Shown: piece by piece, positions 10,969-64,000 of the stretch
Layout: each line of letters opens with the position of its first letter
Position numbering within the stretch: the stretch's first letter is position 1
NCBI GenBank assembly: GCA_964505185.1
Contig: CAZDGM010000001.1
Span: forward strand, 263,734 to 327,733
DNA length: 64,000 nucleotides
Origin: an uncultured Thermodesulfobacteriota bacterium
Lineage (GTDB): Bacteria; Desulfobacterota; JBBIRW01
Direction: 5' to 3'
The notes under the pieces: model-generated
Database searches by the model: none
Seen by the model: the letters and a program-made list of their open reading frames with translations, nothing else
Told to the model about the DNA's origin: nothing
Made by a program: the position numbers and the translations under genes

Positions 10969-10980
10969 ATATCGCTCCGT

Positions 10981-11493: not shown

Positions 11494-11502
11494 ATTCTCC
11501 TC

Positions 11503-12738: not shown

Positions 12739-12801
12739 CAGGATTTTAATTTATATTATAGAAAAATAATAAAATTCATTCCCTATTTTAATTTTTTAAT
12801 A

Positions 12802-13395
12802 TCACTGCCCCGCTTCATACCATTTTACAAAGTCCTCTTCCGGCACCACAATTAGCTTTGAAAGCATATAGGAATGTCTGAGACCACAATACTCAGCACA
12901 TAATATATCGTATTCTCCCTGTATGTCTGTTTTAAACCAGAGGTGCGTTTTCATACCGGGGACAGCATCCTGTTTTATTCTTAAGGCGGGTATATATAGG
13001 CTGTGGATTACATCCATTGATGTAATGGTTAGCTTTACTGGCCTGCCGGCTGGCACATAAAGTTGATCGCTTTCTTTTCCATTTTCATACCTGAATGTCC
13101 ATGACCACATGCGTGCCGTAACATTTACATCCATCGATCCTTCGGGTATTTTACCCAGAACCCTATACCCTGTCCATCCGTAATAGAACATCGATAATAC
13201 AAGGATTATCGGGATAATGGTCCATGCGATCTCGAGGTAGGGATTTTCTGTGATATCAGCGGGCACCGGATTTCTCTTTCTGTTGAACCTGATAAGACAG
13301 TAGATCATGAAAACAGTGATTGAAATTAGAAGAAAGACTGAGATACCAGCTATATAGAAGAATGTGTTATCTACTCTTTCTGCAAAATTTTCCAT
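12802..13395 (-). CDS. coxB: Cytochrome c oxidase subunit II (CuA cupredoxin domain; no fused cytochrome c domain)
   Basis: Two N-terminal TM helices. CuA ligands HSLYIP ... CAEYCGLRHSYM. Confidence 0.85.
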   Translation of the reverse strand: MENFAERVDNTFFYIAGISVFLLISITVFMIYCLIRFNRKRNPVPADITENPYLEIAWTIIPIILVLSMFYYGWTGYRVLGKIPEGSMDVNVTARMWSWTFRYENGKESDQLYVPAGRPVKLTITSMDVIHSLYIPALRIKQDAVPGMKTHLWFKTDIQGEYDILCAEYCGLRHSYMLSKLIVVPEEDFVKWYEAGQ

Positions 13396-13403
13396 AAGTA
13401 ACT

Positions 13404-13697
13404 CTACCTAAAAGAGATATCAAAAAATGTGAATCCTATAATTATCGCAAGGGTAATAACAGAAAGAAGGAGCATGAAATGGAATAGGCGATCCTCATAT
13501 TTCAGATGCATAAAGAAGTTAAGAACCAGTAATGATTTGAATGATGCGATTGATAGCGCTGTGAGAACAGCAATTTTTCCGAGATTAAGAGCTGCTATAG
13601 TGACTGTAAATGCGGTGAGAACAATGAGAGATATCCACACGAAAAAATATGTCAAAAAGCCTGCTTCGTTTCTTTCGTTTTCCATTCCGATCCTCAT
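13404..13697 (-). CDS. coxD: Cytochrome c oxidase subunit IV (small bacterial CoxD/CtaF type)
   Basis: A 97-aa protein with 3 TM helices between coxB and coxC, overlapping coxC by 4 nt. Confidence 0.55.
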   Translation of the reverse strand: MRIGMENERNEAGFLTYFFVWISLIVLTAFTVTIAALNLGKIAVLTALSIASFKSLLVLNFFMHLKYEDRLFHFMLLLSVITLAIIIGFTFFDISFR

Positions 13698-14323
13698 GTT
13701 ATCAGATAAAAAAGTGGAAAGAGGTATATCCAGATTATATCCACAAAATGCCAGTATAGCCCTGTATTTTCAAGTTTAACAAAGTCATGCCTGTTTATAT
13801 TTTCCCTAAGGAGTAATACAAAAATTATGAAAAGGACAAAGATGCCTGCAAGAACATGTAAGGCATGAAGCCCTGTCATAACAAAGTAAAGATTGTAAAA
13901 AAGGACAACAGATGAATCTATGCCGGAAAGTGCTCCTGATCCCGGATAGATACCGTGTTCAATCTTATCCCCCCATTCAAAATATTTGTTCAAAAGGAAT
14001 AAAAGTCCGAAGATGATGGTGATCATGAGAAAGGAAGCGGATCTTATTCTACTTCCATTTTTTATAGAGAATATCGAGATAGCCATTGTGAGGCTGCTTG
14101 TAAGAAGAATTATTGTGTTTAACGTGCCTATTGCTATGTTGAGATCCTTTGCTGCAACATGGAATGAGATGGGATACTTTGCCCTGTATGTGGAATAAAG
14201 GAGAAAAAGACCGCCAAAAAGAAGCATTTCCGTAAATAAAAATAACCACATACCGATCTTTGAGCCAGTATAATCAGTGTGTTTTTCAACAGAAAAAGAA
14301 GTAATACCGAACATGAAAATCAC
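13694..14323 (-). CDS. coxC: Cytochrome c oxidase subunit III
   Basis: 209 aa with 5 TM helices and C-terminal [11 protein letters not shown], the conserved HxVDVVW motif. Confidence 0.8.
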
Positions 14324-15945
14324 CTTTTGAAATCATAGGGTCCTGCGCTGACAGCAGGTATATGCTCGAAGTTCTCAGGGGGCGGAGGAGACTGTATCTG
14401 CCATTCAAGCGTGCTTCCACCCCATAGATTATGTTCTGCCTTTTCACCATATTTCAGAGAATATATAAAATTGTAAAACATAATGATAAGACCAGTTGCA
14501 AGGATCCAGGAGCCAATGGTTGACATCAGATGAAGGGTATGGAATCTCGGAAGATAGTCATAATATCTCCTCGGCATTCCCTCCCATCCAAGAATAAACA
14601 TGGGAAAGTATAAAATATTAAAACCTGTAAAAAGAATGAGCCAGGCAATATTTGCAAGTCTTATGTTATACATCTTTCCAAACATCTTTGGAAACCAGTA
14701 GTGAAGTGCACCGAAAAAGGCAAAGGCAGTTCCCCCAAACATCGTATAATGGAAATGGCCAACGACAAAATATGTATCATGTATATGAACATCAGTGGCG
14801 AGTGCTCCATTTATAAGACCAGTTAAACCACCTATGGAAAACGCAAATATGAACGAGAGTGCATATAGCAGTGGAGGGGCAATTTCAATTGATCCTCCAT
14901 ACAGTGTTGCAACCCAGTTGAATGTCTTAACTCCACTTGGTATTGCTACGAGAAATGTTAACAGGGAAAATACCCACTTTGCAGTATCACTCATTCCGCT
15001 TGTGAACATGTGGTGTCCCCATACAAGATATCCAACGAGTGCTATGGAAAGACTCGAGAATGCTATTGCCTTATATCCGAATATATTCTTCTTTGAAAAA
15101 ACGGGGATTATTTCTGAGATAACACCCATCGCAGGAAGGATCATTATGTAAACAGCAGGGTGTGAATAGATCCAGAAGAGATGCTGAAACAGTAGAGGAT
15201 CACCCCCCTTTGCTGGATCAAAAAAGCCGATCCCAAAAAATCTTTCGCATATGATAAGAATTAGTGTTATTCCAACAACAGGTGTTGCAAGAAGCTGGAC
15301 CCAGCCTGTTGCATAAAGTGACCATACAAAAAGGGGCATGCGGAACCATCCCATTCCAGGTGCCCTCAATCTGTGTATGGTTGTCACGAAATTAAGTCCT
15401 GTTAGTATTGAGGAAAATCCAATTAAAAATGCACCCAAGACAGCGAGGGACACATTTGTTCCTGTTCTTATGCTGTATGGTGCATAGAACGTCCATCCTG
15501 TGTCAATAGGACCACCGCCTGTAAAAAGTGATATCACAGCAAGTGTTGCTCCTCCCATGAAGAAATACCATGACAGAAGATTTATCCTCGGAAACGATAC
15601 ATCCCTTGCACCTATGTGTATGGGAAGAAAGAAATTCCCGAAGGCAGCAGGTATTCCAGGGATAACAAATAAAAATATCATTATGACCCCATGAAGGGTG
15701 AATATGGAATTATACGTCTGCGGACCCATTATGGTTCTTCCTGGTGCAATAAGCTCAAGCCTCATAAGAAGTCCAAGGATAACACCGATAGAGAAGAAAG
15801 AAAGCATGGAGAGAAGGTAGAGTATGCCTATCCTCTTATGGTTCGTTGATAGGATCCAGGAAAGTATCCCCTGATATCTCCCTTTTTCTTCAAGGAAGCT
15901 AATCGTGTGCAGTCTCTGGAGATTGGACTCCTTTGTCATATTCAA
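14320..15945 (-). CDS. coxA: Cytochrome c oxidase subunit I (haem-copper oxidase catalytic subunit)
   Basis: 541 aa with 12 TM helices. Motifs [34 protein letters not shown]. Confidence 0.9.
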
Positions 15946-16754
15946 CCCCTGCTTCCCCTGTTTCTCAAAAGAAATATTGAGAATCCAGCAAGTGAAAGTA
16001 GTATGATTACACCTCCAATCCTTGTTATATTAAGCACGTATCTCCTGGCTTCGGGATCATAACTGTAGCAAAGAAGAAGCACTTTATTTATAGTCGCCCC
16101 CGTTCTTCCTTCAGATGCCTCCGCAATAGCCATTTTCAGATCGAATGGAAGGAGTGCCTTTCCAGGAACATAACGGATAATTTTACCGTCACTTGAAAGA
16201 ACAAGCAGTGAAACAGGATGTATAAATTCATCACCCTTTCTTTTGAAATTAAACCCGATTGCATCGGTGAGCCTTTTAATCGATTCTCTATCTCCTGTGA
16301 GAAATTTCCACGAATCATCAGGAATCTTTTTCTTGATAATCTTTTGAAAAATCCTCTTTTTTTCAAATGCCTTTTCCGGCTTATCATTTTCATCAAAGCT
16401 AAATGTTATTATGGAGTAGTCTCTTCCTGGTTCTGCCTCCATCTTATCAACGAGACGTGCAATCTCTTCAAGGAGAAGATTGCAAACATTGGGACAGCTG
16501 AAGTAAACAGGAGAAAGTATCACCGGCGTCTTAAAGAGTTCCTTGATCGAAACAACCTTCCCATTCTCATCGGTAAAAACCAGATCCAGAGGGATAAATT
16601 TACCTGTTCTATCCTCTATAATTACCTCTTCCCTCTCTTCCATCGCATCCGTATGTGCCTTTAACGGATATGTGGAAGAGATTAACAGAATAGTTATTAT
16701 GGGCAGATATTCTCCTAAGAATGCAAAGATTTTTCGCAAAAATACTCTTATCAT
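15942..16754 (-). CDS. sco: SCO1/SenC family copper chaperone (thioredoxin-like, CPNVC motif)
   Basis: N-terminal TM helix. FSCPNVC (CxxxC), a conserved H later. First gene of the cox operon, overlapping coxA start. Confidence 0.75.
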
Positions 16755-28626: not shown

Positions 28627-29109
28627 ATGCCTGCCTTTCTTCAGATCGATCCTTCAAGATGCACCGCTTGCAGGCTCTGTGAACTTGCCTGCTCCTTTGA
28701 AAAATTTCGTGAATTCAACCCTGAAAAATCATGTATCAGGGAGGTTGTACTCCTTGAGGAGGCATTTTACATACCTGTGGTATGCTACCAGTGCGATGAG
28801 GCCTGGTGTATGAAAGTATGCCCATCTGTTGCTCTAACAAGAAATCGTGAACTGGGTATTATTGAATTAAATGAAACAAGATGCACGGGATGCAGGATGT
28901 GCACCATGGCGTGTCCTTTTGGCGTTATGTTTTATTCCGCCGAGAAGGGGAAGGTATTCAAATGCGATCTCTGCAGGGGCAATCCTGCCTGCGCAAGGAT
29001 ATGTCCTACAAAGGCTATTGAATACAGGGAAGAAGATCTAACACTTCAGCGAAAGAGGAAGATTTACAGCATGAAACTCATGGATGCATACAGGGAGGTG
29101 CAGAGATGA
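28627..29109 (+). CDS. aorA: Poly-4Fe-4S ferredoxin-like electron-transfer subunit of aldehyde oxidoreductase (AorA-like)
   Basis: Four CxxCxxCxxxCP-type clusters. The stop overlaps the AOR start. Confidence 0.75.
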   Translation: MPAFLQIDPSRCTACRLCELACSFEKFREFNPEKSCIREVVLLEEAFYIPVVCYQCDEAWCMKVCPSVALTRNRELGIIELNETRCTGCRMCTMACPFGVMFYSAEKGKVFKCDLCRGNPACARICPTKAIEYREEDLTLQRKRKIYSMKLMDAYREVQR

Positions 29110-30911
29110 GGGGTTATGCAGGAAGGATTTTAAGGGTTGATCTTTCCAGCGGAGATATAAGAGAGGAGGAGATAAATTATGATGTTGCGAGGAAATTTAT
29201 TGGGGGAAGGGGTTTTGGAAGTAAGCTACTTTTTGATGAGATAGATCCAGCGATTGATCCGTTTGATGAAAGAAACAAACTCATTATGGTTACGGGACCC
29301 CTTACAGCTACCTTTGCTCCCACTGGTGGAAGATATATGGTTGTTACAAAATCACCGCTGACGGGAACAGTTGCATGCTCAAATTCGGGTGGCTACTTTG
29401 GTCCAGAATTAAAGTTTGCAGGCTATGATGCTTTGATCGTGGAGGGGAAATCGCGGAGTCCTGTTTATTTATGGATAAAGAATGGAAAGGTTGAGATAAG
29501 AAATGCGGAAAAATTGAGTATGAAGAGCACACATCAAACAGAGGATATCATCAGAGATGAGACGGATCCTGATGCAAAGATAGCAAGTATCGGTCCTGCA
29601 GGTGAAAAACTTGTGAGGCTCTCGTGCATAATAAACGATAAACACAGAGCTGCAGGCAGATCCGGTGTTGGTGCTGTTATGGGGTCAAAGAACTTGAAGG
29701 CGATTGCAGTGAGGGGATCACGCGGAATAAGGGTATTTGATCCTGATGGATTTATACAGGCTGTAAAGGCAGCAAATGAAAAGATATACTCATCGGCTGT
29801 TACATCAAAAGGGCTTCCTGCATATGGAACTGCAATACTTGTTAATATAATTAATGAGTGCGGGCTCTTTCCAACAAATAACTTTCAAAGAGGTGTTTTT
29901 GAATATGCATCAAAAATAAGCGGTGAAACTATGGCAGAGACTATTCTCATCAGAAACAAGGCATGCTTTGCATGCAGCATAGGGTGTGGGAGGATAACTG
30001 AAGTAAAAACTGATGGTCATAAGGTGAAGGGTGAGGGACCCGAGTATGAAAACATATTCGGTCTTGGATCGTGTGTTGGTGTATCTGATCTTGAAGCAAT
30101 TGCAAAGGGTAACTATCTGTGTAATGAACTGGGACTTGATCCAATATCTGCAGGTGCAACAATAGCATGCGCAATGGAACTATTTGAGAAAGGACATATT
30201 GATGAAAAGACAACAGGTCTTCCGCTGAGATTTGGTGATGCAGATCTTCTGATAAATCTTATAAAGATGATAGGAAAGAGGGAGGGTTTTGGCGATATCC
30301 TTGCTGAGGGCTCATACAGAATGGCAGAGCGCTTTGGATATCCTGAGTTATCCATAACAGTAAAACGACAGGAACTTGCTGCATATGATCCAAGGGGAGC
30401 GAAAGGGATGGGTCTCGGATATGCAACTGCAAACAGGGGAGCATGCCATCTCAGAAGCTATACGATTTCACCGGAAATACTTGGCCTTCCGGAGAAGCTT
30501 GATCCCTTTGCAATCGAGGGGAAGCATAACTGGGTAAAGGGATTTCAGGATTTTACATCCGTTGTGGATTCAACAGGTCTTTGCATTTTTAGCACATTTG
30601 CAATAGGGCAGAAGGAGATACTGAATCTTCTCAATACAGCAACAGGATTTAACTATACATCTGAGGAGATTTCAATTATTGGGGAGAGGATTTGGAATCT
30701 TGAAAGGTTGTTTAACATCCGATGTGGATTCAGCAGGAAGGACGATACCCTTCCATCCAGATTCTTGATGGAACCACTCCCTTCAGGCGCAGCTAAGGGG
30801 CAGGTTGTTGAGCTTGATCCCATGCTCGATAAGTATTATGAAATAAGGGGGTGGGATGAGAACGGTATTCCCAAGCAAGAAACATTAAGGAGGCTTGGTC
30901 TGAGTGGATGA
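29106..30911 (+). CDS. aorB: Tungsten-containing aldehyde:ferredoxin oxidoreductase (AOR family) catalytic subunit
   Basis: AOR N-domain (GYAGRILRVDLS...GGRG...TGPLT). AOR C-domain with the Fe-S/pterin region CFACSIGCGR. 601 aa. Confidence 0.85.
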   Translation: MRGYAGRILRVDLSSGDIREEEINYDVARKFIGGRGFGSKLLFDEIDPAIDPFDERNKLIMVTGPLTATFAPTGGRYMVVTKSPLTGTVACSNSGGYFGPELKFAGYDALIVEGKSRSPVYLWIKNGKVEIRNAEKLSMKSTHQTEDIIRDETDPDAKIASIGPAGEKLVRLSCIINDKHRAAGRSGVGAVMGSKNLKAIAVRGSRGIRVFDPDGFIQAVKAANEKIYSSAVTSKGLPAYGTAILVNIINECGLFPTNNFQRGVFEYASKISGETMAETILIRNKACFACSIGCGRITEVKTDGHKVKGEGPEYENIFGLGSCVGVSDLEAIAKGNYLCNELGLDPISAGATIACAMELFEKGHIDEKTTGLPLRFGDADLLINLIKMIGKREGFGDILAEGSYRMAERFGYPELSITVKRQELAAYDPRGAKGMGLGYATANRGACHLRSYTISPEILGLPEKLDPFAIEGKHNWVKGFQDFTSVVDSTGLCIFSTFAIGQKEILNLLNTATGFNYTSEEISIIGERIWNLERLFNIRCGFSRKDDTLPSRFLMEPLPSGAAKGQVVELDPMLDKYYEIRGWDENGIPKQETLRRLGLSG

Positions 30912-46637: not shown

Positions 46638-48110
46638 ATGGCAGTTGTGATAAGAAAGGATCCGAGGCTTCCAGTTTCCATTCCTGTTACGCTGGAGAGC
46701 AAGGAAAATAAGGAAGGTAGGATTGCAATTGCAAAAAATGTGAGCCTTTCAGGAATGTATATCGAAGGAATGGTGCCTTCCCCACCTGATGACCTTGTGA
46801 AGGTGAGATTCAATCTTCCAGGTTTTGATATGGATGTGGAGGTTGTGGGGAGGATTGTCAGAAGGGATGAGAAAGGAGGCGCTATAAGTTTTCTGGATTT
46901 TCAGGAGCCCTTGAAGATAAAACTCTGGGATTTCATGAGGGAGAAACTTATTCAGGAGAGACACTGCCCCTACTGTGGTGAGTATTTTGAGGTAAGACCA
47001 AGGATATGCAGGGAGTGTGGACTGAGTCTTGCGTTTGAGGAGCCTGATTACCTGCAGTTCCATAAAAGGGATTCCCTTAAAAGAAGGCTTATAGAAAGGA
47101 TCAGCCTGCTTCCTGATGAGAAGATCGTCGAGATAATAAATGCATTGGGCAGGGAGATGAAAAGGGTACAGAGTGAAGCGACTACTGAATTTGAAGGAAT
47201 GATCGGTATGTCTGAATCGATGGGCGATATATTTCAATTAATTAGAAATGTGGCCCATACAGATCTTCCCGTGCTTATAATCGGTGAGAATGGAACGGGG
47301 AAGGAACTTGCAGCATATACTATCCATAAAAAGAGTTTGAGAAAGGATAAGCCATTTGTTGTTGTTAACTGTTCAAATGTTCCTGAAGCATTTATAGAAA
47401 AGGAACTATTTGGAACAGAGGGTTCTTCCGGATTGTCGGAAAGCTTAACCGCTATGGGAAAATTCGCATATACAAGGGGTGGGACCCTTTACTTTGATGA
47501 GGTTGGTAATCTCCCCCTTTCGATACAGGACAGGATCCTTAATTTTATGAAATGCGAAGCATTCTCCTCACTCAATGTGAGGATAATATCAGGAACGAGT
47601 AGAGAGATTTCGAGGGATGTGGAGGAAGGGAGATTTCGAAATGAGCTTTTCCAGAGGCTTGCAGCAATCACGATCAAGATGCCTCCGCTTCGTGAAAGGG
47701 GTGAGGATATTATACTCCTTGCAAAATACTATCTCGAAAGGTTAACAAGGGATATAAAAAAGGAAACAAAAGGCTTTACTGAAGAAGCGTTAAGATTGCT
47801 TAAAGATCATTCGTGGCCTGGGAATGTAGCAGAGCTTATAAACAGGATAAGAAGGGCAATAATAATGTCTGTTGGTGAATATATAAGTGGTGAAGACCTT
47901 GGACTTATTCATGTTGAGAGCTCAAAGGGTCTTTATACACTCAAACAGGCAAAGAACATAGCTGAAGGTGAGATAATAAAGAAGACCCTTTATCATTTTG
48001 GCGGAAATATATCAAGGGCGTCAAAAAGTCTCGGTGTAAGTAGAACCTGCCTTTACCGTCTTATCAAGAAGCATCGTCTTGAAGCCATCGAGATAAAGAA
48101 AAAGAAGTAA
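46638..48110 (+). CDS. PilZ domain – zinc ribbon – AAA+ sigma54-activator-like domain (GAFTGA absent) – Fis-type HTH regulator
   Basis: PilZ motifs RKDPR ... NVSLSG. CPYCGEYFEVRPRICRECG zinc ribbon. Walker A GENGTGKE, Walker B LYFDEV, R-finger LNVRIISGTSR. The GAFTGA position reads GTEGSSGLSESLTAM. C-terminal HTH. Confidence 0.75.
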   Translation: MAVVIRKDPRLPVSIPVTLESKENKEGRIAIAKNVSLSGMYIEGMVPSPPDDLVKVRFNLPGFDMDVEVVGRIVRRDEKGGAISFLDFQEPLKIKLWDFMREKLIQERHCPYCGEYFEVRPRICRECGLSLAFEEPDYLQFHKRDSLKRRLIERISLLPDEKIVEIINALGREMKRVQSEATTEFEGMIGMSESMGDIFQLIRNVAHTDLPVLIIGENGTGKELAAYTIHKKSLRKDKPFVVVNCSNVPEAFIEKELFGTEGSSGLSESLTAMGKFAYTRGGTLYFDEVGNLPLSIQDRILNFMKCEAFSSLNVRIISGTSREISRDVEEGRFRNELFQRLAAITIKMPPLRERGEDIILLAKYYLERLTRDIKKETKGFTEEALRLLKDHSWPGNVAELINRIRRAIIMSVGEYISGEDLGLIHVESSKGLYTLKQAKNIAEGEIIKKTLYHFGGNISRASKSLGVSRTCLYRLIKKHRLEAIEIKKKK

Positions 48111-54430: not shown

Positions 54431-54458
54431 TTGACATTACTGGAAAAATCTATATCAT
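54431..54458 (+). promoter_or_regulatory. Sigma70-like promoter driving the 5S rRNA gene (TTGACA-16-TATCAT)
   Basis: Perfect -35 TTGACA at 54431-54436. 5/6 -10 TATCAT at 54453-54458. The predicted transcription start is about 7 nt downstream, coincident with the 5S 5' end. Confidence 0.6.
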
Positions 54459-54463: not shown

Positions 54464-54587
<124 letters not shown>

Positions 54588-54589: not shown

Positions 54590-55174
54590 TTATTTTCCCC
54601 CCTTCAAGGGTTCTTCTCGTTTTTCTGATACTGGCTCAAATGATGAAATCACCATGAAAACATCCATATACCTGGGATCATCAAACCGTGATTTCATATT
54701 TAACCTTTTTATCCTCATATAAATAGGAGAGTGTTCAATCTCGTAAAGGAGGTTTGTTATCTGTGAGATATTGAGCGATTCCCATCGTGATTCTAGGGTA
54801 ACTTCCCTGTATTCTCCCATCGTCTGCGTTATAGATGGCTTTGCATAGACAAGATATTCTCTAACCCTTACCCTTGTTGAAGCCTCTTCAAGCTGGGATA
54901 GGACGGAAGCATGGCGAGATCCATTTACCCTCTTTTCTATATCATCAATTAATGCCTTCAGCCGGAGGTATTCTACCCTTATTGACTCAAGTTCCCTTAT
55001 GGACCTTTCTGTGGATGCTATCTTCTTATCAAGTCCATGAAAATACCCAAGAAGAGGATTTATAAGAAATTCATATAAGAGGAAGATTATTATCAGGCAT
55101 GATCCAGAGATAACGATAATCCTCTCCCTTTTTGAGAACCTTCTGTATAGATTTATAATATCATCTATCTTCAT
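54590..55174 (-). CDS. gspM: Type II secretion system protein GspM-like (PilO-like bitopic inner-membrane protein)
   Basis: Single N-terminal TM helix, coiled coil, periplasmic domain. Last gene of the gsp operon. Confidence 0.55.
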   Translation of the reverse strand: MKIDDIINLYRRFSKRERIIVISGSCLIIIFLLYEFLINPLLGYFHGLDKKIASTERSIRELESIRVEYLRLKALIDDIEKRVNGSRHASVLSQLEEASTRVRVREYLVYAKPSITQTMGEYREVTLESRWESLNISQITNLLYEIEHSPIYMRIKRLNMKSRFDDPRYMDVFMVISSFEPVSEKREEPLKGGK

Positions 55175-56586
55175 CTCTTCCCTCTGATCTTCATGGTTAT
55201 TTTAAAAAGAACGGATTTTTTATCACTGGAAGCCCTTGTCTCTGTAACGCTAACTTCGGAGAATCCTTTTGCCCTTTGTAATCCCTCCCTTATTCGATCC
55301 AGCGAATCAAAGGTATCAGTTTTCCCCTCCATCCACACACTTTCTCCATCCCAGTTCCATTCATTGATATCGATCTTTACTCCATCGGGGATGTTCAATG
55401 ATATTTCTCTTAGCGCATCAAGTGGGGATCTTATCGAATCTTCCACTATCCCCAGATCCCTTGCCTTCTTTTTTAGATTTTCCATTTTTTCTCGTGCCTG
55501 CTCAACCTCATTCACAATCCTCTGCACATCTGTGAATGTTTCTCGAAACAGCAACTGTGATTGGTTCTTTAACAGATTATAACGCGATGATTTGAGATAG
55601 ATCCTCAGTGTGAAATCAGTAATTGCAAGTGAGAGGAGAATGGAGCCCATGATACCGAATCTCACGAGCTGTGATTTTTTTATATCCCTGACCTTTTCTC
55701 TTCTGAATTCTTCCTTTCTCAGATCAACACCCCTATTTGAAACACCTTTCCAGCCTTTAATAGCGAGGGAAAGGCTGAGAAGCATTGATGGGCTTACAGG
55801 TTTCGGGGCTTTTATCGATTCCGTAAGGATATCGGCGGTTGATACATCCGTTCCTGCTTCCCTTTTGATTATGCTTAAAAAATCACTGTCCAGCGCACCT
55901 CCGCCTGCAATAAACCACCTCTCAACCATCCTTTTCTCTTTAACTTCAAAGGTTCTTACACTCTGAAGGATGGTTTTCGAGAGAAGAGCAGGAGAATCAA
56001 TTCCATAAGGTATCCTTTTTGTATAAAGGACAGAATCCCTGACTGCTATAAGTATGTTTGTTTTGGATGATCCTGCATCAATGATTGCAGCGACTTTTTC
56101 ATTTTCATGATATTGTTGATAGAGATGGATGAGTGCCAATCCTTCTGCTTCCAGCATCCATGGGTTTATCGATGCATCCTTCAGTAATTCTAAAAAGTCT
56201 TTTAGGTCATCTTTTTTTGTGAATATAACTAATAGTTGAAATCCGGAGGGAGTCTCTCCTATAATATGGAAGTCAGCTACTATCTCTTCGATCGAAAAAG
56301 GGATTATATCCTCAATTTCAAATTTGAGAATCTTTTCTATTTTTTTTCTTTCAGAGAAAGGGAGTACAATCTTTCTTTGTGAATAATGACTTGAGGGATA
56401 TGAAACAATAACCTCGCCATTGAAGGAAGGAGGGATAATATCTTTAAGTATTTTTGTTACATTCCCATTTTCAGCAACAACCTCTTCCCTCTGTTCAATG
56501 ATCTTAAACTCCTTCCAGTATGCTTCTATGATTGTTACTTTTATTGAATGGCTACCTATATCGATTCCTGCAATAAGCTTTGGCAA
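55171..56586 (-). CDS. gspL: Type II secretion system protein GspL-like (actin-like cytoplasmic domain + TM + periplasmic domain; PilM/PilN-type fusion)
   Basis: N-terminal LIAGIDIGSHSIKVTII actin-like ATPase fold start. Central TM segment. Confidence 0.6.
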   Translation of the reverse strand: MPKLIAGIDIGSHSIKVTIIEAYWKEFKIIEQREEVVAENGNVTKILKDIIPPSFNGEVIVSYPSSHYSQRKIVLPFSERKKIEKILKFEIEDIIPFSIEEIVADFHIIGETPSGFQLLVIFTKKDDLKDFLELLKDASINPWMLEAEGLALIHLYQQYHENEKVAAIIDAGSSKTNILIAVRDSVLYTKRIPYGIDSPALLSKTILQSVRTFEVKEKRMVERWFIAGGGALDSDFLSIIKREAGTDVSTADILTESIKAPKPVSPSMLLSLSLAIKGWKGVSNRGVDLRKEEFRREKVRDIKKSQLVRFGIMGSILLSLAITDFTLRIYLKSSRYNLLKNQSQLLFRETFTDVQRIVNEVEQAREKMENLKKKARDLGIVEDSIRSPLDALREISLNIPDGVKIDINEWNWDGESVWMEGKTDTFDSLDRIREGLQRAKGFSEVSVTETRASSDKKSVLFKITMKIRGKR

Positions 56587-56592
56587 TTTCTA

Positions 56593-57588
56593 TCAACCTC
56601 CTCTTTCCATTCGATGGACTATAACTTTCCCCTTCCCATCGATCTCAACAAGGACCTTAAGTGTTAATTTCACCGGAGGAATATTAGCTCCTTCATGAGA
56701 TATTATGGCAGAAGAAAAAATTTTAAAAAAGCGACTTTTTACATCTATAAGGGGAAAAATCCCGGGATAAATCTTGCTCATCCTTGCTTCATCAACCCTT
56801 TTTATCTCCTCTTTTCTCCTGAAAGGCCCATTTTCTCTCCTGTTTCTTATTATAGCCTCAGCCAGATATGAATCTATTTCATACTCCCTTCCTGCTGAGA
56901 TGATCTGAAAAATGCGTGGATCCTGAACGGTATTGATGTTAATGTATGTTTCACCCTGTTTGTAGGGGTAAACGGTAAAAACATCCTGCAATTTAGCAAT
57001 ATCATCGATCTTGAAATCCTTCAGAAGAACAAGCTCATAGAGTGAATCAAGGAAATTGTTTTTGCATTTATAGGGAGGAATAAGCCCCATATAGTAGGAA
57101 TTTTCCGCACCTGAGTATTCTGGAACATTGTTGCTATCTATCCAGTCAACTATTACAGGAATGCGTTCGAGTGGAATGCCGCAAAGAAGGAAACCTCTTT
57201 CAAATTTTGGAATGTATATTATGTTCTTTGCGCTCCTGCTTGGAGTAACTATCATATTTAAATTTATTTTGCTGTTTTCATCAACAATCGAAACATCGAT
57301 TATTCCCTGCTCCGTTTCTATTCTGAAAGCCTTCGCCCAGGGCTGGTCGAGATGGTGATAGGTTTCTGACGGGATTGTTGTTTTAAGGAGGAGGAGTGCT
57401 TGATTGATCCCGCCTTTTGCGAGCCAGTATGCCTTTGTTTCATCTCTGAGATTGGTAGATTTTCTTATGTTTACGCGAACAGAGTAGTTGAAATCCATGA
57501 TCAGAAAGGTAAGGATTGAAACTATGATAATTGCTATAATAAGGGCAGCCCCATCTTCTTTTTTTATATATGTTGAGTAACTTATCAT
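56593..57588 (-). CDS. gspK: Type II secretion minor pseudopilin GspK
   Basis: DGAALIIAIIIVSILTFLIM N-terminal hydrophobic segment with the GspK pattern. YININTV motif. 331 aa. Confidence 0.65.
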   Translation of the reverse strand: MISYSTYIKKEDGAALIIAIIIVSILTFLIMDFNYSVRVNIRKSTNLRDETKAYWLAKGGINQALLLLKTTIPSETYHHLDQPWAKAFRIETEQGIIDVSIVDENSKINLNMIVTPSRSAKNIIYIPKFERGFLLCGIPLERIPVIVDWIDSNNVPEYSGAENSYYMGLIPPYKCKNNFLDSLYELVLLKDFKIDDIAKLQDVFTVYPYKQGETYININTVQDPRIFQIISAGREYEIDSYLAEAIIRNRRENGPFRRKEEIKRVDEARMSKIYPGIFPLIDVKSRFFKIFSSAIISHEGANIPPVKLTLKVLVEIDGKGKVIVHRMERGG

Positions 57589-57977
57589 TTCAGATCCGCA
57601 ATGTATGTAATCAATTCAACTCGATCTTCACTGTTTCCTTCATTGAAGATAACCTGGACCTTTAACTCCCTTACAGACGGATTTGAAGTAGGAGATATCT
57701 GTTCCTTCCATCTGAATATGGGAAATTCATTTCCGAAGTCGCCCTCCCTTTCTCCCGTCGCGGGAAATCCTTCTGCCTCTATCTCCGACATCTTTGAGGA
57801 TGCAAGAAATGTTGCAGTATCGATGTTTCTAATCTTTGCAGATGCCCTGAGGCTTAATATTTCTGAATAAAGGATGGTGCTGAGGGCAACTGCGATAATG
57901 AAAACTGCTATCATTATTTCAAGTAAACTGAATCCACTTATATTATTGATTGGTTTTCTTTTGCTTGTATCCCTCAT
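57585..57977 (-). CDS. gspI: Type II secretion minor pseudopilin GspI-like
   Basis: Prepilin-peptidase site GFSLLEIMIAVFII. 130 aa. Confidence 0.6.
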   Translation of the reverse strand: MRDTSKRKPINNISGFSLLEIMIAVFIIAVALSTILYSEILSLRASAKIRNIDTATFLASSKMSEIEAEGFPATGEREGDFGNEFPIFRWKEQISPTSNPSVRELKVQVIFNEGNSEDRVELITYIADLK

Positions 57978-58506
57978 ATACTGTTACTTTTCCTGAGTAT
58001 GGATGCAGATAAACTGTATATTGCATGTTATTTCCTGCTTTAATATGGATAAATGTTTCATCGGCATATCCTGATGGTCTCAATTCTATATAAGCAATCT
58101 GTCCCTCCATAAACTTTCCCCTGTTTACAACATCGACATCTTCAAAGTTTATTCCAGCAGGAAGGGTAAATGTTTCTTGTTTGATTGGAGTGAGATTGCC
58201 TTCTCTGTCCAGAGTAAGGTAGGATGTCCAGTATTTTCCTTCCTTTATATCAAAGTAAATGCGATGGTTTGTTTTTCTGAAGACGGCTTCATCATACTGG
58301 AATTCGATGATGGTTTTTAATCTTCGAATAGCACTTTCCGCTGAGGATTCAGCGATATCCTGGAATTTCGGAGCAGCAAAGAAAAATACAAGTGAGATTA
58401 TGACAACAACAACTATAAGTTCAAGGAGTGTAAAAGCCTTATTCGAGATTCCAGCTTTCAATATCGGCATTTTTTCCTTCTCCTCCTGGTTCTCCATCAG
58501 CACCAT
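57943..58506 (-). CDS. gspH: Type II secretion minor pseudopilin GspH-like (or GspJ-like)
   Basis: Prepilin motif [17 protein letters not shown]. 187 aa. Positioned immediately after gspG. Confidence 0.55.
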
Positions 58507-58879
58507 AGGATATTATGTCATATTCGCCATGTTTTCCCGGACATATGTAGATATAGGGATTACCCCAGGGATCTTTTGGAATTCTATCTATGTATCCTTC
58601 CTCCCTGTATCTTGGCGGAATGGGCGAGACTGTGGGTTTTTTAACAAGTGCCTCAAGACCCTGTTCTGTGGTTGGATAGAAGCCATTGTCCAGCTTAAAG
58701 AGATCAAGGGCCTGCTGGAAGTTTCTTATCTGTATCTTTGCCTTTGTTCTTCTTGCCTCTTCAGGTCTTCCCATAAGTTTTGGAACAACAATGGATGCAA
58801 GTATTCCAAGGATGATTATGACAATCATTAATTCTATGAGTGTAAAGCCCTTTGATTGTTTCAGGTTTTTTATGGACAT
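58439..58879 (-). CDS. gspG: Type II secretion major pseudopilin GspG
   Basis: [28 protein letters not shown] and the PKDPWGNPY signature. Confidence 0.9.
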
Positions 58880-58891: not shown

Positions 58892-60112
58892 TCATTTAAT
58901 AATGAGATTTGCCTGAAATAAAGGCAGAAGTATTGAAAAAACAACAAAGGCAACAATAGCTCCCATAAACAGGATCATAACTGGCTCAAGAAGTGAAGTC
59001 AGTCTTGAAATGTTCATCTCCATTTCATTTTCATAAGCATCAGATATCTTAAAAAGCATACTTTCAAGTTCACCTGTTTGCTCACCAATGGCTATCATCT
59101 GTGAAACCATTGGTGGAAATAGTCCACTTTGCCTTAGAGGTGCTGAAAGAGTGCCACCCTCTTTTATATGCTCCTTTGCGATTTCCATAGCTTTTGAAAG
59201 AAGTGTGTTTGTTGTAACAGATCTGGCAATATCGATAGCGGTAAGAAGGGGAACGCCACTGGATATAAGTGTTGCCAGCGTTCTCATAATCCTCGATATG
59301 GATGCGATCCTTACCAGCCTTCCAAAAACAGGAAGTTTCAGTGAGATCCTGTCATATAAAGCCCTCCCCTTTTCTGTCCTTATATATCTTTTTGTAATTA
59401 TAATTGAAATTATCAGCAATACTGCAAAAATCCACCACAGTTTAACTGTTATATGGGAAAAACCTATCAGGATACGTGTAGGAAGAGGAAGTGCGGTCCC
59501 CATATCTTCAAATATCCTTGTAATCTTCGGTATAACTGATGTCATCAGGAAGATGAGTATACCTGTCCCGACGATGAGCATAAGGATGGGATAGGCAAGC
59601 GCAGCCCTTATTCTGTTTCTTATTTTTCCCTGATTTTCGAGAAACTCTGCAAGTCTGAGAAGAACACTGTCAAGTGTACCGCTGGACTCTCCAGACCTTA
59701 TCATATTTACATATACATCCGAAAATACCTTTGGATATTCTTTTAAGGCATCTGCAAGTGAAACACCCTCAGTGACCCTTGTTCTTACATGAGATATAAC
59801 CTTCTTCAGGTAATTATTTTCTGTTTGTTCAATAAGGGAATGAAGGCTTTCAGAGAGGGGAACGCCCGAAGAGAGAAGTGTTGCAAGCTGTCTCGTCATA
59901 ATCGCTCTGTCCTCAAGTGTTACAGGAAAAAGAAATTCCCGAATACTGGATGCTGTTGAAAGTTTTTGCGTAACCTTTGGCTCAGAGATCTCAGTAAGAT
60001 AGATTCCCTTTTCTCTCAGGCGTTGCCTTACTTTCCTCTGATTATCAGCCTCTATGATACCTTTTACCTCTTTCCCCTTTATATCAATACCTCTATATTC
60101 ATAAATTGGCAT
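58892..60112 (-). CDS. gspF: Type II secretion inner-membrane platform protein GspF
   Basis: 406 aa. Duplicated GspF/PilC domain with 3 TM helices. Confidence 0.85.
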   Translation of the reverse strand: MPIYEYRGIDIKGKEVKGIIEADNQRKVRQRLREKGIYLTEISEPKVTQKLSTASSIREFLFPVTLEDRAIMTRQLATLLSSGVPLSESLHSLIEQTENNYLKKVISHVRTRVTEGVSLADALKEYPKVFSDVYVNMIRSGESSGTLDSVLLRLAEFLENQGKIRNRIRAALAYPILMLIVGTGILIFLMTSVIPKITRIFEDMGTALPLPTRILIGFSHITVKLWWIFAVLLIISIIITKRYIRTEKGRALYDRISLKLPVFGRLVRIASISRIMRTLATLISSGVPLLTAIDIARSVTTNTLLSKAMEIAKEHIKEGGTLSAPLRQSGLFPPMVSQMIAIGEQTGELESMLFKISDAYENEMEMNISRLTSLLEPVMILFMGAIVAFVVFSILLPLFQANLIIK

Positions 60113-60120
60113 ATCCCATC

Positions 60121-61422
60121 CTACTTTTCTAATATAATCTTCAATGGTGTTGTTCCGGCTGTAAAAGGAGACCCTGTAACCTGTGAAAAGTCAGAGGCTT
60201 TAAGAATGCTAAAGTTATTGGAGTTTGAATTCACAGCATAGATATGCTGCTTTGAAGAGAGATATAAAACGCCTTCTGGACCATTTCCCACGGAAACAGG
60301 TGTCCCTGGGATTGGTAAGAAGGTTGTTGCATCAAGAACTGTGAGAAGATTTGCTGAAGAGTTTGTTATGTAAATTCTGTTATTATCCTGATCGTATTCA
60401 GCTGCTGCAGGACTGGATCCCGCATTATACGGTGAATTCGGAAGCTCGGTAAGTGTTGATGCATCATAAACTGTTATGTTATTGCTCCCTCTATTAGAAA
60501 TAATTATTCTGTTTTTAGACTGTATATATAAAACATGGGAAGGGCTGTCTCCTGCCGGGAATGGGGATCCTGAGACAAAGTCTGGAGGGTCATTAATCGT
60601 GCTCAATACACTCATGTTATCGCTATATTCATTTGCAATATATATCCTTTTTTTAATTCCGTCATATGCAATAGATACGGGACCTGATCCATCAAGGCTC
60701 TTTGGTGACCACGATAGTTTGGTAAGTGTTTCCGCATCAAATGCGGAAATATTATTACTTTCCTTATTTACTACATAGATCCTATTTCTATCTGGATCAT
60801 AGGCAACATCGTAAGGGGATAGCCCGCCAGTTAAAATTGGTGAGCTTCCTATCGGTGTAAATGATGATCCATCAAGGATTGAAAGATTGTTGCTCTCTGT
60901 ATTGGCGATATATATCCTGTTATTGTTTATATCAAAGCAGATCCCCCTCGGAGAATTTATTCCATTTCCTATGGGAAATGGGGAGCCCGGGATCTGGATC
61001 ATGGATTCTGTATCAAAAACAGTAAGATCATTGCTATTACTATTTGTAATCAATATATACCTCGTTGCTTTAAATGTTAACTGATTGCTTTCTCTACTGT
61101 CTACGATTACCTTTACCATATTATCTCCGGGAGATACGGATGTAGGAACGCTGATTGTTATAGTTGTATTAGACCAGCTTAATGCAATACCCGCATTTAT
61201 TCCCCCTATGGAGACAATGCTTGATCCCTGAGATGCGCCGAATCCGGACCCATTTATTGTTATCTTTATACCAGGCGCACCTGATGAGGGATCTATGGAA
61301 TTAATAATAGGTGTTGATATCCCGACTGAAAGATTTACATCACCACATGCAAAAAAAGAGATTATTAATAGAAATGGAGCAAGGGGGGATAGGCGATTTC
61401 TTCTGAAAGTTCTAATTAGCAT
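60121..61422 (-). CDS. Lipoprotein with N-terminal IPT/TIG domain and a YVTN-type beta-propeller (6-7 blades), encoded inside the gsp operon
   Basis: Signal peptide plus lipobox-like SFFAC. IPT/TIG-like PIINSIDPSSGAPGIKITINGSGF...VKVIV. Repeated NRIY(I/V)xNxxSNN(I/L)S(V/I)(L/F)D blades. Confidence 0.65.
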   Translation of the reverse strand: MLIRTFRRNRLSPLAPFLLIISFFACGDVNLSVGISTPIINSIDPSSGAPGIKITINGSGFGASQGSSIVSIGGINAGIALSWSNTTITISVPTSVSPGDNMVKVIVDSRESNQLTFKATRYILITNSNSNDLTVFDTESMIQIPGSPFPIGNGINSPRGICFDINNNRIYIANTESNNLSILDGSSFTPIGSSPILTGGLSPYDVAYDPDRNRIYVVNKESNNISAFDAETLTKLSWSPKSLDGSGPVSIAYDGIKKRIYIANEYSDNMSVLSTINDPPDFVSGSPFPAGDSPSHVLYIQSKNRIIISNRGSNNITVYDASTLTELPNSPYNAGSSPAAAEYDQDNNRIYITNSSANLLTVLDATTFLPIPGTPVSVGNGPEGVLYLSSKQHIYAVNSNSNNFSILKASDFSQVTGSPFTAGTTPLKIILEK

Positions 61423-61462
61423 CCGATCTCTTCCCTCTCATCAGGATTTTCGGAAAGATGAT

Positions 61463-63175
61463 TTAGAGAAATGCCTCTTCCTGTGTTACACGAAATACCT
61501 CTTCGGCAGAGGTTATACCTTCAAGAACCTTTCTTCCTCCATCCTTTCTGAGCCCAACCATCCCTTTTGAGATGGCCTCCCTCCTTATCGTTGATGAATC
61601 AACCCCCCTTTTTATGAGATTTCTAATATCCTCATCCACTATCAGAAGTTCGTAGATTCCTGTTCTTCCCCAGTATCCTGTATTCATACACTTCTTGCAT
61701 CCGGATGCCCTGTACACTACTGTCTCCTTATCATGAGGGATCTCATCAGATAGCTCAAGTTCCTTCAATAATTCGGGTGAAGCCCTGTAAGGGATTTTGC
61801 ATTCGTTACAGAGTATTCTGACGAGCCTCTGCGCGAGGACAGCACGCAGGGATGATGCAACCAGATAGGGCTCAATCCCCATATCGAGGAGTCTTGTTAC
61901 AGCTCCTGCAGAGTCATTTGTATGGAGTGTGCTGAATACAAGGTGTCCTGTAAGTGATGCCTGGATCGCAATTTCGGCTGTCTCCCTGTCCCTTATCTCT
62001 CCAACAAGGATTACATCGGGATCCTGGCGGAGTATGGATCGGAGTCCCGCTGCAAAGGTAAGATCAATTTTTGGATTCACCTGCATCTGTCCGATACCGG
62101 TTAGTTGATACTCGATAGGATCTTCGATTGTTATGATGTTTTTTTCTGTTGTGTTTATCCTTGTAAGTGCAGCATAAAGTGTTGTTGTTTTTCCGCTACC
62201 TGTTGGTCCTGTAACAAGTATTATCCCATTAGAAAGGCTTATGAATTTGAGCAGCTTTCTCAGTGTATCAGGACCCATACCGAGTTCCTCAAGTTTGAGA
62301 AGAACCCGGCCTTTATCAAGGAGTCTCATCACTATCCTTTCTCCATGAATGGTCGGGATTATGGATACCCTTATATCAATATCGCGAGATGCTATTTTTA
62401 TCCTTATTCTCCCATCCTGAGGGAGGCGTTTTTCAGCAATGTTGAGACCCGCCATTATCTTTATCCTTGAGGATATGGATGGATGAAATCTTTTTGGCGG
62501 TGATACAATATCATATAGAAGCCCGTCAATCCTGAATCTCACAACAAGCTGCCTTTCGTAAGGTTCTATATGTATGTCTGTTGCTCTCTGTCTTACAGCC
62601 TGGTATAGGAGGCTGTTTACAAATCTTATGATTGGGGCTTCGTCATCCGCTTCAAGAAGATCCTTTGGTTCCTCCATTTCGTGTGCGATGATGCCAAGAT
62701 CAACACCGTTGAGCTCTTCCATTACAGTGACAGACCCCTCGGAAAGCTTTTCATATGCATTGTTTATTGCTGCATTGAGTTTTGCAGGTATGGTTAGAAT
62801 AGGAACAATGTCACTTTTAAAAATAAGTTTCAGATCGTCCAATACCTCATCATTCAGTGGATCAGAGATAAATACCTCTATTGCTCCATTTTTTTTCCTT
62901 ACGGGAAGGATAAGATGCTTTCTTGCATAGGATATGGGGATTGTCCTTATAAGGGGAGGCTCTATCTCTTCAATGTAGATCTCCTCCCTGTATTTCATAT
63001 CCCATTGAATGGACAGCGCCCTGTAGACCTCTTCCTCCGTACAGTAATTCATTTCGCAGAGTATCTCACCAATCCTGCCACCCTTTTCCTTCTGGATGGA
63101 TAGTGCCTCTGAGATTTTCAAGGGATCGATTGAGAATTTTTCAACGAGGATTTCTCCAAGAAGTTTTCTCTTCAT
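61463..63175 (-). CDS. gspE: Type II secretion ATPase GspE with tandem MshEN-type (c-di-GMP-binding) N-terminal motifs
   Basis: Walker A GPTGSGKTTT. Asp box, His box and tetra-Cys CKKC motifs. N-terminal LLGEILVEKFSIDPLKISEALSIQ and RIGEILCEMNYCTEEEVYRALSIQ. Confidence 0.9.
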   Translation of the reverse strand: MKRKLLGEILVEKFSIDPLKISEALSIQKEKGGRIGEILCEMNYCTEEEVYRALSIQWDMKYREEIYIEEIEPPLIRTIPISYARKHLILPVRKKNGAIEVFISDPLNDEVLDDLKLIFKSDIVPILTIPAKLNAAINNAYEKLSEGSVTVMEELNGVDLGIIAHEMEEPKDLLEADDEAPIIRFVNSLLYQAVRQRATDIHIEPYERQLVVRFRIDGLLYDIVSPPKRFHPSISSRIKIMAGLNIAEKRLPQDGRIRIKIASRDIDIRVSIIPTIHGERIVMRLLDKGRVLLKLEELGMGPDTLRKLLKFISLSNGIILVTGPTGSGKTTTLYAALTRINTTEKNIITIEDPIEYQLTGIGQMQVNPKIDLTFAAGLRSILRQDPDVILVGEIRDRETAEIAIQASLTGHLVFSTLHTNDSAGAVTRLLDMGIEPYLVASSLRAVLAQRLVRILCNECKIPYRASPELLKELELSDEIPHDKETVVYRASGCKKCMNTGYWGRTGIYELLIVDEDIRNLIKRGVDSSTIRREAISKGMVGLRKDGGRKVLEGITSAEEVFRVTQEEAFL

Positions 63176-64000
63176 TTTTTCCCGGGCTCCTCACCACTTC
63201 TGGTTTCCTCAGGTATGATAATGACCTTTCTTTTCGGTATACCCTCCTTCTTGAGAAACTCCTCCATAGCCTTCTCTTTGCCCTTTGATATTTCCTCTAT
63301 ATCTTTTTGCTCCTTGATTATGTGAGGGGTAAGAAATATAAGGAGGTTGGTCTTGCTCGTTGTCTGGGATTGATAACTAAAAAGCCATTTAATAATGGGA
63401 ATATCGCCCAGTATGGGAACCTTTGTTTCGTTTATTATCCTGTCATCCTTTATTAAGCCTCCTATAACAACTGTCTGCCCATTTTTTGCAACTATGCTAC
63501 TTTTTGCTGATCTCTTTGAGATAGTTGGTCCAACAAGGTTTGGGTCAAGTCCTGCAACCTGTGCAAGGGCAGAGATCTCCTGATATATATTGAGCTTTAT
63601 AAATTCACTTTCACTTATCTGTGGTGTTATACGAAGTGTAATGCCAACATCCCTTCTGTCAACAGTTGCTATGAGTGCGAGCCCGGTTGTATCCCTCTGC
63701 TGACTCACGATGAATGGAACATTCTGTCCAACAACGATCTCGGCTTCCTTGTTATCTGATGTGAGTATGTGCGGATTTGAGAGTATATTTACTCTTGAGT
63801 CAGCCTGAACAGCCCTGAGTATCACATTGAGTGCAGAAGTCTGTATAACCGTTCCATCAGGAAGTGTTATCTTTATAGGATCAAAGATACCAACTGTTGT
63901 AAGTCCTGAACCTGTTAGAGTAGGTAATGTTCCTGCTGTGATTGATGCAAGAAATGATGCAAGATTTCCCGGGGGAGGAACCAGATTCGTTCCACCACCT
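63172..64000 (-). CDS. gspD: Type II secretion secretin GspD (C-terminal secretin domain; N-terminus beyond window end)
   Basis: VPILGDIPIIKWLFSYQSQTTSKTNLLIFLTPHII secretin motif. The reading frame is open to the window edge. The stop overlaps gspE start. Confidence 0.85.
   Translation of the reverse strand, partial: GGGTNLVPPPGNLASFLASITAGTLPTLTGSGLTTVGIFDPIKITLPDGTVIQTSALNVILRAVQADSRVNILSNPHILTSDNKEAEIVVGQNVPFIVSQQRDTTGLALIATVDRRDVGITLRITPQISESEFIKLNIYQEISALAQVAGLDPNLVGPTISKRSAKSSIVAKNGQTVVIGGLIKDDRIINETKVPILGDIPIIKWLFSYQSQTTSKTNLLIFLTPHIIKEQKDIEEISKGKEKAMEEFLKKEGIPKRKVIIIPEETRSGEEPGKK

Follow-up and report, generated by a model that had tools for sequence, protein, structure and literature searches.

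Gene X and the operon around it

A stretch of 64,000 nucleotides from an uncultured Thermodesulfobacteriota bacterium (contig CAZDGM010000001.1, positions 263,734 to 327,733; hereafter the 64-kb window) ends within a gsp operon for a type II secretion system (T2SS), and between the gspE and gspF genes of this operon, at 60121..61422 on the minus strand (-), lies the gene considered here, gene X, encoding a predicted lipoprotein of 433 amino acids (aa). An earlier note on this DNA had described X as a lipoprotein with an Ig-like IPT/TIG domain and a YVTN-type propeller inserted between gspE and gspF, and this description is borne out by the open reading frame (ORF), the Pfam and NCBIfam hits, and a lipoprotein rule. 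All genes of the operon are on the minus strand. On the upstream side, X is preceded by gspE (61463..63175), encoding the T2SS ATPase with an N-terminal MshEN domain that binds cyclic di-GMP (c-di-GMP) (TIGR02533, 712 bits, above the cutoff of 630; PF00437; PF05157), and by the 3' part of gspD, encoding the secretin (63172..64000; PF00263, E 1.6e-50), which is cut by the window end. On the downstream side it is followed by gspF, encoding the inner-membrane platform protein (58892..60112; TIGR02120, 466 bits, above the cutoff of 424), and by a block (54590..58879) in which NCBIfam and Pfam identified gspG (58439-58879), an H-like gene (57943-58506), gspI (57585-57977), gspK (56593-57588), a PilM-like gspL (55171-56586), and an M-like gene (54590-55174). 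The order in the window is therefore gspD-E-X-F-G-H-I-K-L-M, and since the scores are at the equivalog level, the operon is a bona fide T2SS operon.

Two observations concern the neighboring gsp genes. The MshEN domain of GspE is intact (NF053729, 53.9 bits, above 38), comprising the N-terminal ~57 residues with tandem R..LG..L…AL..Q motifs, and a PilZ-domain sigma-54 activator is encoded ~13 kb from gspE (46638-48110, plus strand [+]); together, they suggest control of the T2SS by c-di-GMP. The longest ORF of the GspH-like pseudopilin (57943-58506) overlaps the end of gspG (58439-58879) by 68 nt, and its true start is probably an internal Met ahead of the prepilin motif, since a 184-aa product is called on related contigs.

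Gene X is tightly packed into the operon. The gspE-X intergenic region is 40 nt long (61423..61462, -) and carries a Shine-Dalgarno-like sequence, GAGGGAAG, upstream of the ATG of X, while the X-gspF junction is 8 nt long (60113..60120, -), with the gspF Shine-Dalgarno sequence AGGA overlapping the TAG stop codon of X (60121-60123). The gaps of 9 and 41 nt given earlier are coordinate differences. A scan for promoter-like and terminator-like sites found none isolating X above the shuffled expectation. Because the gaps are short, AGGA and TAG overlap and the promoter/terminator scan stayed at background, X would be transcribed with the T2SS genes, and translational coupling of X to gspF is implied.

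The domain composition of X was determined with Pfam, NCBIfam, and a structural model. Residues 38-118 (61069..61311, -) form an IPT/TIG (Ig-like) domain (PF01833, 46.2 bits, E 4.7e-12, against a gathering threshold of 20.9; profile positions 1-83 of 84), whose Protein Data Bank (PDB) matches include the E-domain of cyclodextrin glucanotransferases. Residues 119-433 (60124..61068, -) form a seven-bladed YVTN-type beta-propeller (TIGR02276, PF10282, PF21783, and PF01436), with the YVTN repeat model TIGR02276 scoring 68.7 bits (cutoff, 27.85), the Lactonase model PF10282 scoring 43.4 bits (threshold, 21.7), and the Pfam NHL, Lactonase, and YNCE propeller models spanning approximately residues 120-433. 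The propeller sequence comprises seven repeats (RIYI.N..SNN.S..D….SP…G…P….Y), which begin at residues 121, 169, 214, 259, 305, 349, and 393, with a mean blade-to-blade identity of 36%. The AlphaFold2 (AF2) model, computed with an 88-sequence alignment from the translation of 60121-61419 (-), which lacks Met1 (so that residue numbers in the model, as in alignments A1 and A2, are lower by 1 than the true ones), shows a closed toroid of seven four-stranded blades at a predicted local distance difference test (pLDDT) value of ~97. Of the six to seven blades proposed earlier, it is thus seven that both the model and the repeats give. The six-stranded beta-sandwich of the TIG domain is less certain than the propeller (pLDDT 50-70), and the model shows disorder over the first ~38 residues.

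The N terminus of X (MLIRTFRRNRLSPLAPFLLIISFFA followed by the cysteine) has a positive n-region, a hydrophobic core, a lipobox, and Cys26. It was assessed by a PROSITE-style rule, which combines these features with a lipobox of the form [LVI..][ASTG..][GAS]-C and a cysteine at position 15-35. The signal peptide and lipobox occupy residues 1-26 (…ISFFA-C26; 61345..61422, -), with positive residues R4, R7, R8, and R10 in the n-region and an h-region of LSPLAPFLLIISFFA leading to FFA-C26. All three orthologs compared, those of the window (FFA-C) and of the related loci L002 (LFA-C) and L005 (IFS-C), conform to the rule; the lipobox cysteine is invariant among them, and the h-region drifts. X is therefore a predicted lipoprotein and signal peptidase II substrate. 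The cysteine is followed by a mature N-terminal tether (residues 27-37, G/E-D-V-N-L-S-V…; 61312..61344, -; pLDDT <50), a candidate sorting signal. The sorting motif of T2SS lipoprotein cargo, at positions P2'-P8', is rich in Gly/Ser or Asn/Asp, with a 'hybrid Gly/Asp' form described for Burkholderia and Shewanella (PMC12802150). In X, four of these seven positions are Gly, Ser, Asp, or Asn (GDVNLSV), and in the L005 ortholog three are (EDVNLSV); the count of X is the highest or joint highest among nine predicted lipoproteins of the loci compared, the others having 0 to 3. The partial fit of the post-cysteine residues to the sorting motif is suggestive only. By analogy, the acidic Asp28, joined by Glu27 in one ortholog, may resemble the residues of Lol avoidance and T2SS-lipoprotein sorting. 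The stretch D28-V33 is identical in the three orthologs, but we take this as weak evidence of a sorting signal because it is not significant at 75% overall identity, where an identical run of six residues has a probability of ~0.18 by chance.

X is a real gene under purifying selection: in comparison with two orthologs, the ratio of nonsynonymous to synonymous substitution rates (dN/dS) was 0.11-0.17, with no indels and at a dS of up to 1.3. These dN/dS values are similar to those of GspL, GspI, and GspK, with GspE and GspF being somewhat tighter (0.06-0.08). A recent horizontal insertion was considered and rejected, as the GC content (0.392), the GC content at third codon positions (0.318), and the codon-usage distance (0.138) of X are all inside the range of the window's genes. 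No paralog of X was found in the window.

No Gsp, Pil, or secretin family was found among the Pfam and NCBIfam hits of X, nor was any T2SS, type IV pilus (T4P), or pilotin fold found among the 50 PDB fold matches listed, and X falls into none of the canonical T2SS components (GspC-O, GspS). Its Foldseek matches include the periplasmic YncE, 6-phosphogluconolactonases (1ri6, 4qrj, and 6nau), and BtuG/BT1954, at 11-15% identity. We rejected X as a member of the lactonase or YncE families, as its scores with the corresponding equivalogs are far below the cutoffs (NF008258, 16.1 versus 370; NF050136, 17.8 versus 500; YncE NF052280, 37.9 versus 400). These sub-cutoff scores, together with the fairly symmetric blades, point to a binding scaffold rather than an enzyme.

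Distribution of the arrangement and the rest of the cluster

The closest relatives of the window's GspF, at 87-100% identity, fall into five clusters, and the next ones reach at most 52%; since the identity drops from 87% straight to this level, the lineage is sparsely sampled. The clade includes two metagenome-assembled genomes labelled 'Deltaproteobacteria bacterium' by NCBI. The gspE-X-gspF order is kept in all three of its distinguishable lineages (the window, L002/L003/L004, and L005), with X always 433 aa long and 90% identical to that of the window in L002/L003/L004 and 75% identical in L005. In the outgroup loci L006 and L008, gspE adjoins gspF. The L008 operon has another lineage-specific break in the core gsp order, namely, a gene for a ParA/BcsQ/MipZ-like ATPase between gspD and gspE (L008, 3164-3988).

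We then surveyed 80 metagenomic loci with GspF relatives of 36-50% identity, of which 58 carry gspE upstream. The two genes abut in 55 of these 58, and the other 3 show a gap of 214-330 nt without a credible gene, so that an inserted gene was found between gspE and gspF in none of the 58 surveyed loci and an X-like sequence in none of the 80. Together with L006 and L008, these counts uphold the earlier statement that a gene in this position is rare. The earlier note had named, as what would refute its reading, related genomes with gspE next to gspF and X absent or elsewhere, combined with a lack of secretion dependence; the first half of this is the situation in every relative outside the very narrow clade, inside which X is kept. 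As X is absent and gspE and gspF are adjacent outside the clade, X is not a general feature of this T2SS type; it was added recently, in this lineage alone, and does not belong to the conserved parts. In Ralstonia, the gspE-gspF interval holds a gene for a major facilitator superfamily (MFS) transporter in strain CMR15 and a gene for a hypothetical protein in Po82 (PMC5080846); with these genes and the ParA-like gene of L008 at hand, functionally unrelated insertions in gsp operons do occur. A separate observation comes from two surveyed loci without an upstream gspE, in which a predicted lipoprotein gene (321-349 aa) lies directly before gspF (L035, 3932-4981; L050, 4007-4972); the N termini of the products read …LMVG-CSESG… and …AGFAG-CSKFGGG…, with Gly/Ser-rich residues after the cysteine.

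A full-length relative of X outside the clade was found neither by an exhaustive HMMER scan of 1.84 billion representatives nor by a word-indexed protein search nor by a Joint Genome Institute (JGI) metagenome scan using the ortholog alignment. The top 150 hits of the exhaustive scan beyond X's own cluster are proteins of 700-6,500 aa made up of several propellers or of numerous TIG repeats. A lipobox, a TIG domain, and a propeller were found together in just one other hit, P0087, a 466-aa lipoprotein (AASA-C, then a poly-Asp linker) that is 24% identical to X and is encoded divergently from an adjoining helix-turn-helix (HTH)-pilM-N-O-P-Q operon (L009, 8001-9401; L010, 4948-6348). Its family has ~30 members, several of them from Myxococcota. 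We considered a recurrent link between TIG-plus-propeller lipoproteins and secretin machines and rejected it as coincidental, since the adjacency of P0087 to the pil genes is not conserved in three family members (P0254, P0241, and P0255; 32-43% identical to P0087), which have no pilus or secretion neighbors on their long contigs.

The region upstream of gspC lies beyond the window end and was therefore examined in L002 (1501-5285), a close relative of the window (GspE, 95.6% identical). The order there is gspN, a gene for a 177-aa tetratricopeptide repeat (TPR) lipoprotein, a gene for a 283-aa unknown protein, gspJ, an Rce1/CPBP-like protease gene on the opposite strand, gspC, and gspD. The gspN gene is of the Leptospira type (TIGR04411, 82 bits, above 50), gspC is of the delta type (NF041515, 155 bits, above 150), and gspD is full length (TIGR02517, 562 bits; cutoff, 351). 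The gspJ gene has moved from its usual place between gspI and gspK, the cluster of the clade being split and rearranged; the T2SS is otherwise complete, with C, D, E, F, G, H, I, J, K, L, M, and N. The TPR lipoprotein (…LIHATSG-C) gives weak hits to PilW (49.5 bits) and Tgl (36.5 bits) and has only one Gly/Ser/Asp/Asn residue among the seven at P2'-P8'. Judged from these hits, it is a better pilotin candidate than X.

Candidate roles of X and other features of the window

The earlier note had offered three functions for X without ranking them, namely, a dedicated substrate, a surface-displayed cargo, and a pilotin-like component. The first two are favored here, and the last is disfavored: X does not have the fold or size of a secretin pilotin, being a 43-kDa all-beta protein of 433 aa with an Ig-like domain and a propeller, and it is not needed as a pilotin because a TPR lipoprotein of pilotin type is already encoded in the cluster. 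Our tentative preference is that X is an operon-embedded surface lipoprotein cargo dependent on the T2SS and GspN, analogous to PulA, SslE, and InvL. This reading is favored because X has domains and a fold of a surface type, gspN is present in the cluster, the sorting motif is partly matched, and X is a lineage-specific insertion in a complete T2SS. Like known T2SS lipoprotein cargo, X has a lipobox-containing precursor, and its absence from the outgroups is the phyletic pattern expected of cargo and not of machine parts. As shown by Roberts, Gura and Sandkvist (mBio 2025, PMC12802150), GspN, an AsmA-like beta-taco protein, is dispensable for soluble T2SS substrates, but lipoproteins (InvL and others, and PulA via PulN) require it for their T2SS transport to the cell surface. 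By this route, X would be exported by Sec and lipidated at Cys26, and the folded protein would stay at the inner membrane until picked up by the T2SS; its acyl chains would be shielded by the AsmA-like GspN of the same cluster while it was pushed through the GspD secretin. Its final place would be the outer leaflet, where it would be anchored and where the TIG stalk would hold the propeller outward; there, the propeller could serve as a ligand- or protein-binding module in adhesion or nutrient capture, like the propellers of Lp49, BtuG, and the S-layer YVTN protein.

Several points weigh against X being a surface cargo. The case for it is a computational one. The site in the middle of the operon and the tight coupling to gspF imply a machine-like stoichiometry, and known cargo genes lie at operon edges or elsewhere. 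A clade this narrow (GspF at least 87% identical) would keep synteny by default, and the Ralstonia genes (PMC5080846) show that the gspE-gspF interval can receive unrelated genes. As the window ends inside gspD, the observation of GspN is limited to the close relative L002. The match to the sorting motif is partial, with V, L, and V interspersed and no GGG or ND(N/D) run, the motif itself is defined only in Gamma- and Betaproteobacteria, lineages distant from that of X, and the lipoprotein background for the P2'-P8' comparison is tiny (n = 9).

Some of the same observations could point to X as a novel part of this delta-type T2SS, a lipoprotein with an accessory or structural role that is specific to the lineage, docking on the secretin, GspC, the platform, or periplasmic GspL/M and assisting or altering assembly, gating, peptidoglycan crossing, or lipoprotein hand-over. 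The ATPase and platform genes lie on either side of X, gspF at a distance of 8 nt, and the Shine-Dalgarno/stop overlap is indicative of machine-like coexpression; the length of X is strictly 433 aa, and its identity of 75% and dN/dS of 0.11-0.17 equal those of the periplasmic parts GspH, I, K, L, and M (70-80% and 0.08-0.24). Propellers are classic protein-protein scaffolds, the acidic +3 residue (and +2 in L005) could equally mean retention in the inner membrane, and the machine of this clade may be idiosyncratic because the cluster is rearranged and gspJ has moved. We nevertheless consider such a role doubtful, as related T2SSs (all 58 surveyed loci with gspE, as well as L006 and L008) lack X while every canonical part is present. 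Furthermore, X has no sequence or fold similarity to T2SS, T4P, or pilotin proteins, known pilotins are small (PMC3542185), the cluster already has a pilotin candidate in the TPR lipoprotein with weak PilW/Tgl similarity, and the adjacency of P0087 to pilMNOPQ is not conserved.

Alternatively, X could be an ordinary periplasmic or Lol-sorted outer-membrane TIG/YVTN lipoprotein, with a T2SS-independent function such as YncE-like ligand binding, whose gene was inserted once in the ancestor of the clade. The insertion is confined to one shallow clade, and the window and L002 are syntenic throughout, including the unrelated downstream genes for fructose-bisphosphate (FBP) aldolase and a nitroreductase, so that the conserved position of X carries little weight. 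The genes inserted between gspE and gspF in Ralstonia, the ParA-like gene of L008, and the occurrence of P0087-type TIG-plus-propeller proteins in unrelated contexts agree with such a passive insertion. Against it, the tight spacing, the dependence of X on the operon promoter, and that of gspF on read-through make X a part of the T2SS expression unit; X has been retained through a dS of >1 without decay; and a lipoprotein gene and gspN in one cluster fit the known link between GspN and lipoproteins. On balance, we regard this possibility as rather improbable. A periplasmic or secreted enzyme, i.e., a propeller hydrolase of the lactonase, 6-phosphogluconolactonase, or arylesterase type, could account for the PF10282 score of 43.4 bits, the weak Arylesterase hit in Pfam, and the fold matches to 1ri6, 4qrj, and 6nau. 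However, the NCBIfam lactonase equivalogs score far below cutoff (17.8 versus 500 and 16.1 versus 370), the identity is 11-12% to lactonases versus 22% to the S-layer YVTN propeller, and the mutually similar blades (mean, 36%) share a motif that is structural, as in binding scaffolds. PF10282 also holds propellers with a putative protein-binding role, such as Lp49 (PMC9218822). An enzymatic (lactonase) role is unlikely, and to the hydrolase explanation as a whole we give only a very small probability.

Should X indeed be exported by the machine of its own operon, the locus would be a compact, self-contained unit of T2SS, GspN, and lipoprotein cargo from neither Gamma- nor Betaproteobacteria. 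The GspN-dependent route for lipoproteins, described only recently, would then be known from a distant lineage as well, and the locus would offer a simple natural pair in which to study the handling of acylated cargo by a secretin machine and the form of the sorting signal in that lineage. If X was instead a part of the machine, it would represent a new accessory class, and type IV filament machines would have gained, in a single lineage, a new class of component. The impact is limited either way: only a few uncultured genomes have the arrangement, and the domain families are very common. Although the arrangement is rare, X is most likely another T2SS-linked surface lipoprotein, a known kind.

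The remaining observations concern other parts of the window. An orphan 5S rRNA gene (54471-54583, +; RF00001, 99.9 bits) lies on the opposite strand, immediately downstream of the gsp genes, with a sigma-70-like promoter matching at 11 of 12 positions (TTGACA-16-TATCAT; 54431-54458) just upstream of it. No 16S or 23S rRNA gene was found in the 64 kb, and the rRNA genes therefore appear to be unlinked. An RtcB RNA ligase gene is followed by a gene for a fusion of a CobW/HypB-type GTPase with archease, the cofactor of RtcB (643-3473, +). A cluster encoding a molybdopterin/4Fe-4S oxidoreductase with a possible lipobox, a c-type cytochrome, and cytochrome oxidase subunit I (8152-16754, -) resembles a respiratory module of alternative complex III plus oxidase, and the same genome encodes an aldehyde:ferredoxin oxidoreductase (29106-30911).

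Comparison with known systems

Pilotins (PulS/OutS, AspS/YghG, and PilF/PilW/Tgl) are small proteins of a helical, alpha/beta, or TPR type, which bind to the secretin's S-domain. Like X, they are lipoproteins and are sometimes encoded in the secretion operon (aspS), but X, a 43-kDa, all-beta protein of two domains, has no similarity to them. A functional model for X as an accessory part would be BamB, a propeller lipoprotein with a scaffold function in the beta-barrel assembly machinery (BAM) complex, an envelope machine. BamB is an eight-bladed PQQ/WD-like propeller without an Ig stalk or a T2SS link, and it is not among the 50 PDB fold matches listed for X. BtuG and BT1954 of Bacteroides (8bai, 8bmx, and 8okv) share with X a seven-bladed propeller on a lipoprotein, theirs being surface exposed and engaged in ligand capture. 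They differ from X in showing only 12-15% identity, in lacking the TIG stalk, in using the surface-lipoprotein route of the Bacteroidota, and in having a TonB-dependent transporter as a partner.

The best match of the X propeller in both sequence and fold is the archaeal S-layer YVTN propeller of Methanosarcina mazei (1l0q), with a phmmer E value of 1e-19, a Foldseek E value of 3.4e-20, 22% identity, and a root mean square deviation (rmsd) of 2.0 Å over 317 columns. That protein, too, is a cell surface protein combining a propeller with Ig-like (PKD) domains; however, it is archaeal and not a lipoprotein, has the reversed order of propeller then PKD, and has no link to a secretion system. The two-domain layout of X as a whole is that of Lp49 (LIC10793) of Leptospira interrogans (3bws), a lipoprotein antigen of ~430 aa whose N-terminal domain is Ig-like and whose C-terminal domain is a seven-bladed propeller of the Lactonase/YVTN lineage. 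The model of X was matched to 3bws_A at a Foldseek E value of 2.1e-14 over 411 aligned columns, with template modeling (TM) scores of 0.53/0.56; the rmsd is high because the relative orientation of the two domains differs. With ~15% identity and a phmmer E value of 2.1e-4 over 118 residues, the two proteins share only the architecture and are not orthologous, and Lp49 is not known to be encoded in a gsp operon. Giuseppe et al. (2008; cited in PMC9218822) described Lp49 as having two domains and a putative function in protein binding.

For X as a cargo, the closest parallels are the T2SS-dependent surface lipoproteins InvL of Acinetobacter baumannii, PulA of Klebsiella, and SslE/YghJ of Escherichia coli, which have a lipobox signal peptide and the presence of a GspN-containing T2SS in common with X. 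There is no sequence or fold relationship, X carrying a YVTN propeller and not a lectin, pullulanase, or M60 domain; moreover, the gspE-gspF interval that houses X is a mid-operon position and not an edge, and the post-cysteine residues of X match the motif only in part. InvL, a validated cargo, is a 492-aa lipoprotein in which an Ig-like stalk is capped by a binding domain (PMC9245377), so that it resembles X both in size (492 versus 433 aa) and in the combination of an Ig-like stalk with a C-terminal binding module. Genetic linkage of cargo and machine also has precedents, sslE and pulA being linked to gsp/pul clusters and sslE being cotranscribed with the machine. In the E. coli arrangement yghJ-pppA-yghG-gspC..M, the SslE cargo and the lipoprotein pilotin AspS are encoded together with the machine, an arrangement termed a 'self-contained' unit of secretin, pilotin, and substrate (PMC3542185, PMC3707838).

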